A DNA stretch of 25,061 nt from an archaeon (GTDB taxonomy: Archaea; Asgardarchaeota; Thorarchaeia; Thorarchaeales; Thorarchaeaceae). Numbering within the stretch: position 1 is the stretch's first letter; every line of letters starts with the position of its first letter. The translations under genes were made by a program, and so were the position numbers. A model generated the notes under the pieces. It saw only the letters and a list, made by a program, of their open reading frames with translations. It ran no database searches and was not told the DNA's origin. Shown in pieces: positions 6,367 through 11,354 of the stretch. Location: contig JAJRZD010000118.1 of assembly GCA_024275415.1 (NCBI GenBank), forward strand, positions 1 through 25,061. Reading direction: 5' to 3'.

Positions 6367-6420
6367 ACAGCAACTCGTGTCTTAGTAAAGGTGATATACT
6401 AGGCTCAACCAACTCCATAC

Positions 6421-6428
6421 GGATGTGA
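6421..6428 (+). promoter_or_regulatory. probable Shine-Dalgarno (GGATGTGA) for a CTG start of metF
   Basis: One mismatch to GGAGGTGA, 6 nt before in-frame CTG 6435. This matches the spacing at 9942 and 17437. Confidence 0.5.
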
Positions 6429-6434
6429 CAGGAT

Positions 6435-7364
6435 CTGTTTCGCTCTCACCTTGAATCGCTCCTCAATAAGGGTCAATTCGTCGTCACAGCTGAGATACGC
6501 CCTCCCAAGGGGAGTGATACCTCAATACTCATTGACCGGATCCGGACTGTACGGGGTTATTGTGATGCGATTAACATAACCGACAACGCCCGAGGCATTC
6601 CACTGATGAGCAGTGTGATTTGCTCACATTATGTCATCAAGGAAGGGTGCGAACCAGTTATGCAGATTACTTCACGCGACCGCAACAGGATCATGCTGCA
6701 GAGTGATCTCTATGGTGCATACGCCTTGGGGGTCAGGAACGTACTGTTCATACAGGGGGATCTCCCATCTTTTGGCACTCACCCGGATGCAACAGCCGTG
6801 TACGATTTGGACTCGCCCGGAACAGTTGCGTTGGCAAACAGGCTTCGGTCAGGTTATGACATGGCTGGCGACGAGTTAGAAGGAACTCCCTCGTTCTTTG
6901 TTGGCGCCACTTTCGATCCAAATGATCTCTCAGAAAAGCAACTTGTTCACCTGAAACGCAAAATAGATGCCGGTGCGCGATTCTTTCAAACGCAAGCGGT
7001 CTTTGACGTGTCCGCGTTGCAGGAATTCATGAAACGGATCGTGGAAACCAGAGTCAAGACCATAGTTGGTATAATACCCTTGAGAACCCCGGAGATTGCT
7101 GAATTCATGGATACGAAGGTTCCTGGCATAACAGTCCCCACAGAGATGATTGACCGTTTGAAGAAGGCTGGTGAGGGGCTTCCAGAAGAGAAGATGCTTG
7201 AAGCCTTCGAACATGAAGGGATACAGATGGCTCTCGAACTAATCGAAGATATTAAGAGAGTCCCTGGAGTGTCTGGAATCCATCTCATGGGTGTCGGTTG
7301 GACTGAAAGCATCCCAGTGCTTGTACAGGAAGCCGATCTACACCCCAGACCATCCCGAGGTTAG
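6435..7364 (+). CDS. metF: 5,10-methylenetetrahydrofolate reductase (MetF family); start is upstream of the ORF-track ATG 6606
   Basis: The frame of 6606 stays open back to TGA 6426-6428 and encodes the typical N-terminus (L)FRSHLESLLNKGQFVVTAEIRPPKG...DAINITDNARG. Core motifs: EPVMQITSRDRNRIMLQSDL, GVRNVLFIQGD, KIDAGARFFQTQAVFD, GIHLM. Confidence 0.88.
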   Translation: MFRSHLESLLNKGQFVVTAEIRPPKGSDTSILIDRIRTVRGYCDAINITDNARGIPLMSSVICSHYVIKEGCEPVMQITSRDRNRIMLQSDLYGAYALGVRNVLFIQGDLPSFGTHPDATAVYDLDSPGTVALANRLRSGYDMAGDELEGTPSFFVGATFDPNDLSEKQLVHLKRKIDAGARFFQTQAVFDVSALQEFMKRIVETRVKTIVGIIPLRTPEIAEFMDTKVPGITVPTEMIDRLKKAGEGLPEEKMLEAFEHEGIQMALELIEDIKRVPGVSGIHLMGVGWTESIPVLVQEADLHPRPSRG

Positions 7365-7368
7365 CGAT

Positions 7369-8286
7369 GTGTTCGTGTTCAAAACGAAACAGCAGAAATT
7401 CGAATTTGGTGGGATCTCTTTCGGAGGCGCATCCGGTGAGAGTCCCACTGTTCTAGTTGGAGGACTTTTCTTCAAGGGCCAAGAGATTGTGGTTGATACC
7501 AAGTCGGGACGTTTCGATAAGGAAATCGCCAAAGAATGGATATCACTAGCAGAAGCCTCCTCCGAACAGACCGGCCATCCACTAATCCTGCAAATATACG
7601 GTCGAATGCCCGATGCCATGGAATCGCACATACCTTGGATCGTTGAGAATTATGATGGTCCGTTCATGATAGAGTCGATAAATGCGCGCGCACGAATTCG
7701 GGCGGTTCAGTTATGTGAGGAACTTGGACTAAAAAACCGGGCTATCTTCAATGCTGTCAACCTATCTCTCACAGAGGACGAGAAGAATGCTCTCCGCGCA
7801 TCATCACTTGAAATGGCTGTGGCGCTAGGCTGGTCACCCCGTACCACTTCTCTGCCAGAACGAATGACCGTGATTAAGCAAGTTCTGGATTTGGTCGCCG
7901 AGCTTGGCTTCAAGTATAAACTGGTGGATCCTGCGACTATGCCCGTTGGTGCAGGCTTCGGGCTGGACTATCGATCCATCCCCGCTATAAAATCGGAGTT
8001 GGGATTACCTACTTGTGCGGGTGCTCACAATGCGCCTTCTGCATGGAAATTCCTCAAGCAGCAAGGATTCAATAAAGAATCGACACACCTGTCTGCAATC
8101 ATTGCTTCAACAGTAGCTGCCCAGATATTTGGAGCCGATTGCATAATGTTTGGTTCGTTGCGTAGGAGCAAAGAGGTTTTCCTCGCGGTGTCTCTCGTAG
8201 CAAATGCGATATACACGGGCCTTGGTGAATCCTATCGTGCGCTCGGGATAGCACAAGATCTCTTCGAACCGCCGACCATCGAATAG
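7369..8286 (+). CDS. mtrH: MtrH-family pterin-binding methyltransferase, divergent copy 1
   Basis: GTG 7369 with GAGGTTA 5 nt upstream gives MFVFKTKQQKFEFGGISFGG..GE.PTVLVGGLFFKGQEIV, an MtrH-like N-terminus. GAHNAPSAW and GADCIMFG motifs are present. Confidence 0.85.
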   Translation: MFVFKTKQQKFEFGGISFGGASGESPTVLVGGLFFKGQEIVVDTKSGRFDKEIAKEWISLAEASSEQTGHPLILQIYGRMPDAMESHIPWIVENYDGPFMIESINARARIRAVQLCEELGLKNRAIFNAVNLSLTEDEKNALRASSLEMAVALGWSPRTTSLPERMTVIKQVLDLVAELGFKYKLVDPATMPVGAGFGLDYRSIPAIKSELGLPTCAGAHNAPSAWKFLKQQGFNKESTHLSAIIASTVAAQIFGADCIMFGSLRRSKEVFLAVSLVANAIYTGLGESYRALGIAQDLFEPPTIE

Positions 8287-8297
8287 GAGGGTTGTTC

Positions 8298-8990
8298 ATG
8301 AATCAGATCATTCGAGAAGACTGGCCTCCAGTTCCAGGTGATTTTGAGGTTGGGGATTTGACCTCCGCTGTTGCCATCTGCACGCTCGGCAAGAGGATTG
8401 CAGTTCCTTGCAAGTATGCAATCATAGGGACATGCAAGACCGAGAACATCGGTATTGAACGGGTAATAGTCAATGTGGTATCCAACCCATTGATCCGATT
8501 CTTCATTCTTGCCGGTCCAGAGGTTCCCGGTCATCATACAGGAGCATCCATTCGAGCATTGTATGATTTCGGAATCGAGTCAGACACACGGCGAATCGTT
8601 GAGGCGCCTGGCGCTATCCCATATATCGAGAATATCCCTGTTGAAGCCGTGGAACGATTTCGGGAACAGGTCGAGTTCATAGACATGATGAATGTGTCTG
8701 ACCCTGCCAAAATTTCAAGTATGGCGGAGGAGCTGAACAAAAGGAACGTTGAGCCATTTCCCGAAGAGATTATCTGGATCGACTTCAAGAGCAAGACGAA
8801 AAAGAAATCCACTGGGGTGATGATAGCATCTGTGTCCGTAGTCCCTGAAATAGGTCTGTTCTACCATCCTGACACATCGCTCATATACTCTCAGACTATG
8901 GATGCCAAGGTTTCGGACAGTCCCACCTCAATAGGGATTGAGATACGCGAAGATGAGGGTGGGACTGTACTGGTCGGCAAGGAGTCGTGA
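8298..8990 (+). CDS. mtrA: MtrA-family corrinoid protein without a C-terminal transmembrane helix (soluble, MtxA-like)
   Basis: DWPPVPGDFEVGD, CKTENIGIERVIVNVVSNP.IRF, EVPGHHTG (cobalt-ligand His) and GAIPYIENIP.EAVERFREQVE. ATG 8298 has AGGAGGG 6 nt upstream. The C-terminal 70 aa are hydrophilic or beta-like. Confidence 0.92.
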   Translation: MNQIIREDWPPVPGDFEVGDLTSAVAICTLGKRIAVPCKYAIIGTCKTENIGIERVIVNVVSNPLIRFFILAGPEVPGHHTGASIRALYDFGIESDTRRIVEAPGAIPYIENIPVEAVERFREQVEFIDMMNVSDPAKISSMAEELNKRNVEPFPEEIIWIDFKSKTKKKSTGVMIASVSVVPEIGLFYHPDTSLIYSQTMDAKVSDSPTSIGIEIREDEGGTVLVGKES

Positions 8991-8995
8991 TTACA

Positions 8996-9931
8996 GTGTT
9001 CATATTCCAAAAAGAGCAAGTGATACACCAAATAGGCGGCGTCAAGATTGGAGGGAATCTAGGAGAGATCCCTACCGTCTTGGCTGGAAGCATATTCTAC
9101 AACGGACACAAGATAGTTTCTGACCCGAACAGTGGCGAGTTTGATAGGTCTAAAGCTGAAACTCTGATTACATTACAGGATGAAATGTCAGAAACCACCG
9201 GGAACCCGTGTATGATTCAGATAGTGGCTGAAGCAGAGGCTGCTATGCAGAAGTACATTGATTTCGCTTCTGAGATTTCCGAAGCTCCCCTAATAATTGA
9301 TTCTACGAGTTCTGATGTCCGAATCTCAGGTCTACATCATGCCGAGGAAGTAGGACTGATTGATAGGATTATCTACAACTCGCTTAATGTGTCTGCAACA
9401 AAAGAGGAGATTGACTCTCTTAGGGAATTCCAGCATGAATCCGCCATTGTCCTTGCCTTTAACCCTCAAGATCCTTCGATTGCCGGACGGCGAGCAGTTC
9501 TTGATGAGGGCATCATGAATCTTGAAACAGGCCTTCTCCCTCTCAGTGAACAGCTCGGAATAACAAAGCCACTGATTGATACAGCCACGACTGCAATGGG
9601 AGCTGGAGCCGGGTCTTCTGTGGCATTCACCTTCGTGTCGAAGGCAAAATATGGACTACCTACCGGGTCTGGCATACATAATGCGCCCTCATCGTGGTCA
9701 TGGCTTCTCGAGCATAAGAAGAAGAATAAAGATGCCTTCAAGGCATGTGATTATGCCTCAAATCTTGCTGTCCAAATGTTGGGTGGTGACTTTGTCCTGT
9801 ACGGACCTATCAAGAACGCAAGAATCGTCTTTCCCCTTATCGCAATGGCTGATTCTTTCGCAGCTGAATATGCAAACATCGAGTTCGGCATTGATGCCTC
9901 TGAGAATCATCCCTTCAAGCGTCTTTTCTAG
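8996..9931 (+). CDS. mtrH: MtrH-family pterin-binding methyltransferase, canonical-like copy 2
   Basis: MFIFQKEQ..HQIGGVKIGGNLGEIPTVLAGSIFYNGHKIV, IIDST, IYNSLN, LIDTA, GSGIHNAPSSW and GGDFVLYGPI. GTG 8987 (4-nt overlap with mtrA) is the alternative start. Confidence 0.92.
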   Translation: MFIFQKEQVIHQIGGVKIGGNLGEIPTVLAGSIFYNGHKIVSDPNSGEFDRSKAETLITLQDEMSETTGNPCMIQIVAEAEAAMQKYIDFASEISEAPLIIDSTSSDVRISGLHHAEEVGLIDRIIYNSLNVSATKEEIDSLREFQHESAIVLAFNPQDPSIAGRRAVLDEGIMNLETGLLPLSEQLGITKPLIDTATTAMGAGAGSSVAFTFVSKAKYGLPTGSGIHNAPSSWSWLLEHKKKNKDAFKACDYASNLAVQMLGGDFVLYGPIKNARIVFPLIAMADSFAAEYANIEFGIDASENHPFKRLF

Positions 9932-9941
9932 GTGATGCCAT

Positions 9942-11354
9942 TTGGTCAGGCGTTTCAAGGTGGTCAGGCCCCGTTCAGTCGGAGTTACCACGACTCGGAT
10001 GGGCCCGTTCTTTACGGTCGCATCTGTGGAGCTGGGCAATACCACGACAAAATGCATCATCTCGACAACAAACCTGAAAACAGCGGAGATATTCCAGATT
10101 GCAAAGGAAGTACGGTTCACTCGGGATGTCCGACCACCCAAAGCAGGGGAAAGTGTTTTTGGTGAAACCTTAGTTGGAATAGGACTCACCCGCGAATCTG
10201 TGAAGGAGCTTGTGTCTGACATAATCCGGTCTGTCGTCACAACGGCAGGAATGGACATCAGTTTGGATCTACACTTTGCTGTGCGTTCTACGGGTGTCAC
10301 TGCTGGTTTTTCTCATCCCGATGATGTAGGAGAGATGGTGAAAGCGCTTGCAGAAGGCTGTCTTGCAGCCGGTATTCCTCCTCGAAAGATGACCGCATCT
10401 TTATCTCCTGAGAATCTCCCTCCTCAATTCCAAGATTTCACATGGCTGCGCCGAGTTTATTTCGATGGTGCCATCACGAGCAGTCTACCTCCTGCTGACG
10501 CGAATATTGTGGGGAATGAGATGGAGGGCGAGCTGGTGACTGCTGGTATCAAGGGCGCAGCAAAATCGACAGACATCGACTTCAGGAACCCTGTAATGAC
10601 CCTTGATTTTGGAACCACGCTTGCTGGCCGTGTGACCGATGATTCCTTTCCGTACTCTCGGACTATTGGGTCGTTTGTCGGACTGGCCGGTGCAATACCC
10701 GACGCACTTGTTTCAGGATCGCGATTGGTTCCTATCAATAATGCCACGGCCCTTGACATTGGCAACAAAAGTAGAAATCTTTCTGTCGATATTCCCGACT
10801 CGGTCGTGGACGAGGTTCACAGTCTAATTCGAGTGGAGGTACTTGGAAAAGGAATTGACCGCTATGGGACAGTCCCTGTCAATGTTTCTGCAGCTGCTGA
10901 GTCCGAAGTGACCATCATAGGTGTAGATGTGGGACGAAACGGATCTGACTTGCCATTGTTGGAGAAAAAAGGACTAGAGGTCACCAACGAGTTCGGGGCT
11001 GATGGTCTAATCTCAACGATTGATCTGGTACAATCCAGATTGGTTTCACGCTTGGTTTCTGTTGCTGAAGAGAATGGACTAGTCCTCAATGACACCTCGC
11101 TGGGACTGACTGGGCGTGCTATCACAACTGGACGAAAACCACTGCTGGTCGCCACAGACTTATCGACCAGTAGTGGCACAGCATGGGCCACTTCACATCA
11201 ACTCATTTTTGTTGAGGATGGACTTGCCTTTGGAGCTGCTGTGGCTGCCAGATGTATGAACTCGCTCGGGACTCGCCATAACCCAATGGGAGGACGCAAA
11301 GGAAACAAATGCATAATGGGAGCAAGGATGAAACTTCAAAGACTCGACCGATGA
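9942..11354 (+). CDS. methanogenesis marker protein 14 family (DUF2114-like), ASKHA/actin-like ATPase motifs
   Basis: VASVELGNTTTKCI, TRDVRPPK.GE.VFG, LTRESV.ELV.D, DLHF.VRSTGV.AGF, ALA.GCL.AGIPPRKMT and NEMEGEL match marker 14 as recalled. TTG start with AGGTGA 6 nt upstream. Confidence 0.85.
   Translation: MVRRFKVVRPRSVGVTTTRMGPFFTVASVELGNTTTKCIISTTNLKTAEIFQIAKEVRFTRDVRPPKAGESVFGETLVGIGLTRESVKELVSDIIRSVVTTAGMDISLDLHFAVRSTGVTAGFSHPDDVGEMVKALAEGCLAAGIPPRKMTASLSPENLPPQFQDFTWLRRVYFDGAITSSLPPADANIVGNEMEGELVTAGIKGAAKSTDIDFRNPVMTLDFGTTLAGRVTDDSFPYSRTIGSFVGLAGAIPDALVSGSRLVPINNATALDIGNKSRNLSVDIPDSVVDEVHSLIRVEVLGKGIDRYGTVPVNVSAAAESEVTIIGVDVGRNGSDLPLLEKKGLEVTNEFGADGLISTIDLVQSRLVSRLVSVAEENGLVLNDTSLGLTGRAITTGRKPLLVATDLSTSSGTAWATSHQLIFVEDGLAFGAAVAARCMNSLGTRHNPMGGRKGNKCIMGARMKLQRLDR

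Follow-up and report, generated by a model that had tools for sequence, protein, structure and literature searches.

The closest structurally described counterparts of the proteins studied here belong to the membrane-bound Mtr complex of methanogens. In the 2025 cryo-EM structure of Mtr from M. mazei, the MtrH dimer binds a sheet formed by MtrB residues 1-23, small hydrophobic MtrB residues occupy a hydrophobic pocket between the two MtrH subunits, and two salt bridges are present, Glu9(MtrB)-Arg211(MtrH) and Arg5(MtrB)-Asp5(MtrH) (PMC12774963). A single MtrB meander serves the entire MtrH dimer in this complex, and strands of MtrF and MtrG extend the MtrB sheet (PMC12774963). For M. marburgensis, the same MtrB-MtrH interface was predicted with AlphaFold2 (PMC10998594). 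Both studies place the MtrB N-terminus, as a docking element, at the MtrH-binding end of membrane Mtr, which agrees with what the initial annotation of the locus described below had stated. Outside the methanogens, genes for MtrA and MtrH are found widely in archaea that lack the other Mtr subunits and are usually termed "canonical MtrAH remnants" (PMC9635834), and covalent MtrA-MtrH fusions were described earlier in Asgard archaea of the Atabeyarchaeia/Freyarchaeia type (PMC11291895). A further relative, MtxA, is encoded by the mtxXAH operon of Methanosarcinales (NF010654); this soluble homologue of MtrA has about 197 aa and a basic linker, and its gene adjoins that of an MtrH homologue. In the literature searched, we found no description of an MtrB-like tail on MtrA and nothing that brings MtrB, MtrH and Thorarchaeia together, while MtrA, MtrB, MtrH and Asgard occurred together only in an ancestral reconstruction.

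In this study, we examined a 25,061-nucleotide stretch of a Thorarchaeal genome (contig JAJRZD010000118.1; here called the window) that carries a tight, co-oriented cluster of genes for an MTHFR-like protein, MtrH1, MtrA, MtrH2, DUF2114, CofE and LarC. The cluster starts with the MTHFR/MetF-like gene (6606..7364, plus strand; Pfam PF02219, 96.5 bits) and continues on the same strand with mtrH1 (7369..8286; PF02007, 222 bits), encoding a divergent MtrH paralogue of 305 aa, and with the gene for a soluble form of MtrA of 230 aa (8298..8990). These are followed by mtrH2 (8996..9931; PF02007, 372 bits; TIGR01114, 379 bits and over the cut-off), encoding a canonical-like MtrH paralogue of 311 aa, and by a gene for a DUF2114/methanogenesis marker 14 protein (9942..11354, plus strand; PF09887, 589 bits; TIGR03285, 575 bits), a candidate cobamide reactivase. 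MtrH1 and MtrA are identical (100%) to recorded gene products of 305 and 230 aa, respectively, and a gene product of 311 aa is recorded for MtrH2. The order MTHFR-MtrH1-MtrA-MtrH2-DUF2114-CofE-LarC is the same in four distant Thorarchaeal contigs; the MTHFR/MetF-like gene keeps its position in these 4 other contigs, and the DUF2114 gene invariably stands second downstream of mtrA.

The borders of two of these genes deserve mention. A GTG at 8987 that overlaps the MtrA stop codon makes the start of mtrH2 ambiguous; its orthologues and the recorded 311-aa product start at 8996 (MF[IV]F...). In the region 6367-7364, the MTHFR-like open reading frame starts at position 58 of a 287-position profile, and its 240-nt 5' flank (6367-6605) contains stops in that frame; orthologous proteins are between 251 and 314 aa long. 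One relative (L115) has a DUF5981 (PF12225) gene just upstream of the MTHFR-like gene, and none is evident here.

The closest homologues of MtrA come from named Thorarchaeota. The 3.5-Mb genome is 92.9% complete and contains three MtrH genes and a single MtrA domain, the one in the window. Searches of this 92.9%-complete genome for the membrane subunits of a complete Mtr complex gave no match for MtrE and none over the cut-off for MtrB, the best PF05440 match reaching 14.5 bits at a site away from the MtrA tail. The third MtrH paralogue is more divergent and is encoded elsewhere in the genome (G000:C67:19629-20459; L005:1444-2358:-), next to genes for a 229-aa protein without a Pfam match and an Rce1-like protease.

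The MtrA protein (residues are numbered with the Asn at 8301 as residue 1) consists of a normal cobamide domain, a Lys-rich linker and a 56-residue tail without a membrane helix. The domain matches PF04208 over residues 5-168 with 174.1 bits (cut-off 25). Like the canonical membrane MtrA (TIGR01111; M. marburgensis, 238 aa), it has the His motif, and its gene adjoins mtrH. Residues P76, G77, H78, T80 and G81 are invariant among 26 MtrA orthologues, so that the His of the G-H-x-T-G motif, which ligates cobalt in the M. marburgensis protein (His84), is kept; the same motif reads QGHITG in Methanothermobacter MtrA. The protein scores only 165.2 bits against the TIGR01111 model for MtrA of the canonical Mtr complex (cut-off 249), with a match that ends at profile position 185 of 238, and 156 bits against the MtxA model NF010654 (cut-off 279).

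The differences from canonical MtrA lie at the C-terminus. Canonical MtrA continues from its cobamide domain into a Glu/Gly-rich linker and a long stalk/membrane helix (L048), whereas the Thorarchaeal protein continues into a Lys-rich linker and two beta elements and has no hydrophobic helix. The linker, KSKTKKKSTGV (8787..8819, plus strand), was read from the sequence and is predicted to be flexible, with a pLDDT of <50 in the full-length model; among orthologues its sequence varies yet stays basic. Its charge is inverted with respect to the EEGGEEEEGEE linker of canonical membrane MtrA (L048:1801-2517), and the MtxA linker is likewise basic. Since the maximum 19-residue Kyte-Doolittle mean of the tail is 1.36 and the anchor of MtrA from Methanothermobacter reaches 2.15, no membrane helix remains, and the loss of the anchor asserted in the initial annotation is borne out. 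MtrA aligns from end to end, including the conserved tail, with >100 Thorarchaeal orthologues that are 225-236 aa in length. In an alignment of 92 tails, Pro182, Glu183 and Gly221 are invariant, and Pro208, Thr222, Leu224 and Glu228 are nearly so.

The first half of the tail is formed by a module resembling the MtrB N-terminus (motif 1), a predicted three-stranded beta-meander of residues 174-200 (8820..8900, plus strand) that contains the invariant Pro182-Glu183. Its core, V178-I195, is encoded by nt 8832-8885 and reads VSVVPEIGLFYHPDTSLI. For this comparison, genomes with MtrB were reached via a pattern scan for methanogen genomes; 61 Methanobacteriota and 81 Halobacteriota genomes were searched with the Pfam MtrB model, and the N-termini were read in the 60 loci obtained. 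Two MtrB strings quoted when the likeness was first proposed proved exact, VKIAPEYNLTLDPSTGMI occurring in Methanothermobacter loci and VRIAPEINLVMDTESGTV in Methanosarcina loci. The profile comparison with a 35-sequence MtrB alignment (hhalign) confirmed an MtrB-like first motif, with a Prob of 95.3 and an E-value of 2.4e-8 over 27 columns for the whole tail and a Prob of 96.4, an E-value of 1.1e-9 and a score of 43.0 for its first half. One hundred column shuffles scored 18.0 at most, with a median of 9.2. The similarity is short (~27 residues) and covers MtrB residues about 3-30, and the motif common to the MtrB arm and the tail can be written [VI]-x-[ILV]-[ALV]-P-E-[YFI]-[GN]-L-x-[LFY]-D-P-x-[ST]-[GS]-x-[VI].

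Searches at the level of whole genomes pointed to the same segment. When the tail profile was used in a six-frame scan of the 81 Halobacteriota genomes, the 16 best matches all lay within the opening ~25 codons of mtrB, and the best E-value per genome was 5.3e-5. The start of mtrB was matched at an E-value of ≤1 in 27 of the 45 mtrB-carrying genomes and was the best match in 26 of them, while genomes without mtrB gave nothing better than 0.06. In the reverse direction, the MtrB N-terminal profile found its best match in the 3.5-Mb Thorarchaeal genome at 8832-8885 (E-value, 0.18), making the tail and the mtrB start reciprocal best hits at the whole-genome level. A hidden Markov model (HMM) of the first half of the tail found the MtrB open reading frame in essentially every mtr locus of the Methanobacteriota and Halobacteriota, and several MtrB lineages read V-L-P-E-Y-G-L-V-V-D-P, near the Thorarchaeal consensus V-x-L-L-P-E-Y-G-x-x-x-D-P-x-T-S-L-V. 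Among 177,635 PDB sequences, the top match of the tail profile was again MtrB (8q3v_B, residues 7-26; E-value, 0.086). As the hhalign comparison, the shuffles, the genome scans, the reverse scan and the locus HMM all agree, we regard the likeness of motif 1 to the MtrB N-terminus as real and specific on sequence grounds.

Other searches were silent on MtrB. Single-sequence and Pfam searches did not detect the likeness; a Pfam scan of the tail alone (the last ~60 residues) gave no match at an E-value of ≤10, and an ESM Atlas feature search with residues 172-229 gave no usable match. When the profile was run against 1.84 billion representative proteins, every match was a Thorarchaeal MtrA fragment or a low-complexity repeat protein; in a library of such size a 27-residue motif cannot reach an E-value of ≤0.001. 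The docking meander with its Pro-Glu motif is present, but the stalk helix, the NSL-P...PGRE motif and the C-terminal membrane helix of MtrB are not, and MtrA ends 29 residues past the meander; the Pfam MtrB model (PF05440) does not recognize the protein because the rest of MtrB is absent. Thorarchaeal MtrA is thus neither a member of the Pfam-defined MtrB family nor a canonical MtrA. In MtrB the module forms the N-terminus of a separate subunit, whereas here it forms the C-terminus of MtrA.

We also analyzed the distribution of the tail in a sample of 151 Asgard genomes. It is present in 24 of the 26 sampled genomes of the family to which the window belongs and in one genome of another Asgard family (G153), in which the order MtrH1-MtrA-MtrH2 is the same. 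The tail of G153 reads INLLPEFNINLDPYTGLV, and within it PEFNINLDPYTGLV is identical at 12 of 14 positions to PEFNITLDPSTGLV of a methanogen MtrB (locus L063 of the Methanobacteriota sample), which makes a common origin likelier than convergence. The same identity, the profile-profile E-value of 1e-9 with shuffles far below it, and the fact that the same 25 mtrB codons were matched repeatedly and independently in dozens of genomes all speak against a chance resemblance, for which one could cite the shortness of the motif, per-genome E-values of often merely 0.001 to 0.2 and the modest E-value of the reverse match. If the tail were left over from a lost Mtr stalk and had no function, it would hardly show the strong purifying conservation seen across the family. 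We consider an explanation by chance, convergence or decay very improbable.

Most other Asgard families in the sample carry their MtrA domains in frames of about 510 aa. The one such frame that was verified (L153:1519-3045:+, genome G161) encodes a single 509-aa polypeptide in which MtrA (residues 18-183) is joined at its C-terminal side, via a covalent linker of ~37 residues, to MtrH (residues 221-487). These fusions, which are those described in PMC11291895, resemble Thorarchaeal MtrA in that the association with MtrH does without membrane subunits and starts at the C-terminal side of the MtrA domain; they differ from it in that the Thorarchaeal connection would be a non-covalent, MtrB-derived dock for two separate MtrH paralogues. 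Since MtrA and MtrH are tied covalently through the same C-terminal end where the dock is missing, the fusions provide an independent argument that the tail holds MtrH, as well as a natural comparison for an MtrB-type dock. One Asgard MtrA-MtrH fusion gene is followed by a thymidylate-synthase-like gene.

To compare the putative partners with the solved interface, the contact residues were aligned. Methanosarcina MtrB starts with MSIVRIAPE, so its Glu9 is the glutamate of the Pro-Glu pair, and its aligned counterpart in the tail is the invariant Glu183. On the side of MtrH, the equivalent of M. mazei Arg211 is Arg202 in MtrH1, which is invariant in 36 MtrH1 orthologues; the position is occupied by Ala in MtrH2 and by Lys in the third paralogue. 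The residues for the Glu-Arg pairing are thus kept in the tail and MtrH1, while the Arg5/Asp5 pair is conserved on neither side in the Thorarchaeal proteins. The retention of Arg202 is weak evidence for docking because Methanosarcina MtxH, which has no MtrB partner, also has Arg at this position. MtrH1 further keeps the pterin-site residues Gln75, Asn129, Asp196, His229 and Asn230, with Asp103 replaced by Glu, and for this reason looks catalytically competent.

Structure predictions were made for the full-length protein, the tail and the complex. In the full-length AlphaFold2 model of MtrA, the cobamide domain is confident, residues 165-205 are poor and the tail is of low confidence, as is expected of a segment that folds on binding. 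A tail-only model built from the 92 sequences reached a mean pLDDT of 70 and showed three short strands in the MtrB-like part (pLDDT of about 80), followed by a further hairpin. The predicted three-strand meander is the same module as the N-terminal arm of MtrB (residues 1-23/30; 9qts/9qtp of M. mazei, 8q3v of M. marburgensis, PF05440). Foldseek gave no PDB match to the tail model at an E-value of ≤0.001; the MtrB chains 9qts_E, 9qts_D and 9qtp_E were found at probabilities of 0.63-0.72. The model superposed on the 27-residue MtrB peptide 9qtp_E at 1.3 Å (TM by target, 0.79; probability, 0.72; E-value not significant), which is consistent with the MtrB-like reading and is no evidence by itself, and VIA-align re-scoring against chains of ≥30 residues gave nothing over Z 2.4. 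A prediction of the complex of MtrH1, MtrH2 and the tail from alignment inputs yielded an ipSAE of 0.02 in two runs, with a pLDDT of <50 for the partners, values that speak neither for nor against binding.

Alternatively, the MtrB-like module might have been re-used for another purpose, such as self-association of MtrA, binding of the DUF2114 protein or formation of a lid on the cobamide domain. The disorder of the tail in the monomer model would fit such a role, as would the constant position of the DUF2114 gene and the pairing of the MtrB sheet with MtrF and MtrG strands in Mtr, which makes other strand pairings conceivable. However, within the module a single side chain is invariant, that of the Glu in the Pro-Glu pair, which contacts MtrH in the solved complex, and the MtrA-MtrH fusions found in sister lineages suggest that the partner is MtrH. 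We therefore consider re-use unlikely and docking of MtrH the better reading of the module.

The second half of the tail was analyzed in the same way. It contains a second conserved hairpin (motif 2; residues 201-229, 8901..8987, plus strand), with strands predicted at tail positions 45-52 and 55-62 of the tail-only model; V204-V223, encoded by nt 8910-8969, reads VSDSPTSIGIEIREDEGGTV. Motif 2 had been proposed as a second, looser MtrB-like copy, with one motif serving each MtrH paralogue. In hhalign comparisons it resembled neither MtrB (Prob, 0.2) nor motif 1 (Prob, 0.5), and its HMM found nothing at an E-value of <0.5 among all open reading frames of 62 mtr loci, which cover the end of MtrC, MtrB, MtrA, MtrF and the start of MtrG. 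Whole-genome scans likewise gave no consistent match for profile positions 34-63. A tail with a separate MtrB-like hairpin for the docking of each of MtrH1 and MtrH2 would accord with the conservation and predicted beta-structure of both tail halves and with the position of mtrA between two mtrH genes; given the negative profile comparisons, and a solved complex in which one meander suffices for the MtrH dimer, such an arrangement is quite unlikely, and the proposal of one motif per paralogue is not supported for a second half unrelated by profile to MtrB and motif 1. Motif 2 might complete the small sheet to which MtrF and MtrG add strands in membrane-bound Mtr. A LAMTOR5/Roadblock-type strand-turn-strand was also considered for motif 2 and dropped, since the PDB matches were weak (E-value of about 0.5) and probably due to chance; Roadblock genes are abundant in the genome carrying this tail.

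Taken together, we favor, with a probability of roughly 0.7, the reading that MtrA is a soluble cobamide carrier in which an MtrB-homologous MtrH dock has replaced the membrane anchor and which docks the flanking MtrH dimer. The membrane/stalk helix of MtrA would have been replaced by the Lys-rich linker, the MtrB-type meander and a lineage-specific extra hairpin. By homology to MtrB, the meander would dock MtrA onto a dimer of the flanking MtrH paralogues, either an MtrH1/MtrH2 heterodimer or an MtrH1 homodimer, the contact Arg being kept by MtrH1 and not by MtrH2. The docked cobamide domain could then swing on its linker of roughly 15 residues to the MtrH active site(s), giving a self-contained, membrane-free methyl shuttle. 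We infer the docking, the identity of the MtrH partners and the chemistry; binding of the tail to MtrH is strongly suggested by the solved homologous interface, the conservation and the analogy to the fusions. The MtrB-like tail is thus the probable means by which an MtrA-MtrH complex for methyl transfer holds together without a membrane. Of the original proposal of an MtrA-MtrB(N) fusion that tethers MtrH, the part resting on one MtrB-homologous module stands as the best reading because this module is the MtrH-docking element in methanogens, while a second MtrB-like motif is not supported. The accompanying idea of a stalk turned into a soluble scaffold is not supported either, as no stalk helix is kept and only the docking meander and the extra hairpin are found.

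The C-terminus thereby makes Thorarchaeal MtrA non-canonical, as it carries the dock that the 2025 cryo-EM structure assigned to MtrB. The arrangement offers a testable architecture for a soluble MtrA-MtrH complex, with a module containing an invariant Pro-Glu pair and Arg202 of MtrH1 as its candidate partner. It is also relevant to the evolution of the Mtr stalk subunits and to how methyl groups are metabolized by the archaea most closely related to eukaryotes.

A comparison with MtxA showed that its C-terminal D-I-I-x-S-E-E-F-V-M-D-S-x-x-G-I-I element aligns with motif 1 (hhalign Prob, 66; E-value, 5e-5). The element differs from motif 1 in a turn that is two residues shorter and in a Ser in place of the Pro, it is followed by no second hairpin, and its likeness to MtrB itself is weak (Prob, 5). 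A C-terminal dock for MtrH or MtxH may be general among soluble MtrA-type proteins. Going further, we suggest very tentatively that a C-terminal MtrB-like dock is the general, perhaps ancestral way in which soluble MtrA-type carriers hold MtrH, as in the Thorarchaeal proteins, the second Asgard family and possibly MtxA, and that the MtrB arm is the same module on another subunit. The MtrH1-MtrA-MtrH2 trio would then form a self-contained soluble machine whose single tethered cobamide carries methyl groups back and forth between the two unlike pterin-type sites of a heterodimeric MtrH.

The MtxA loci in our collection are L117-L133, with L111:2502-3092:- as an example of the gene, and their basic linkers include KKRQ and KRKKRRK. 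In several Halobacteriota methanogens, mtrB is directly followed by two copies of mtrA in tandem (e.g., G099:C22:3155-4893). MtrB frames of about 186 aa occur in G069, G080, G091, G102, G112 and G138, which suggests N-terminally extended or fused forms of MtrB.
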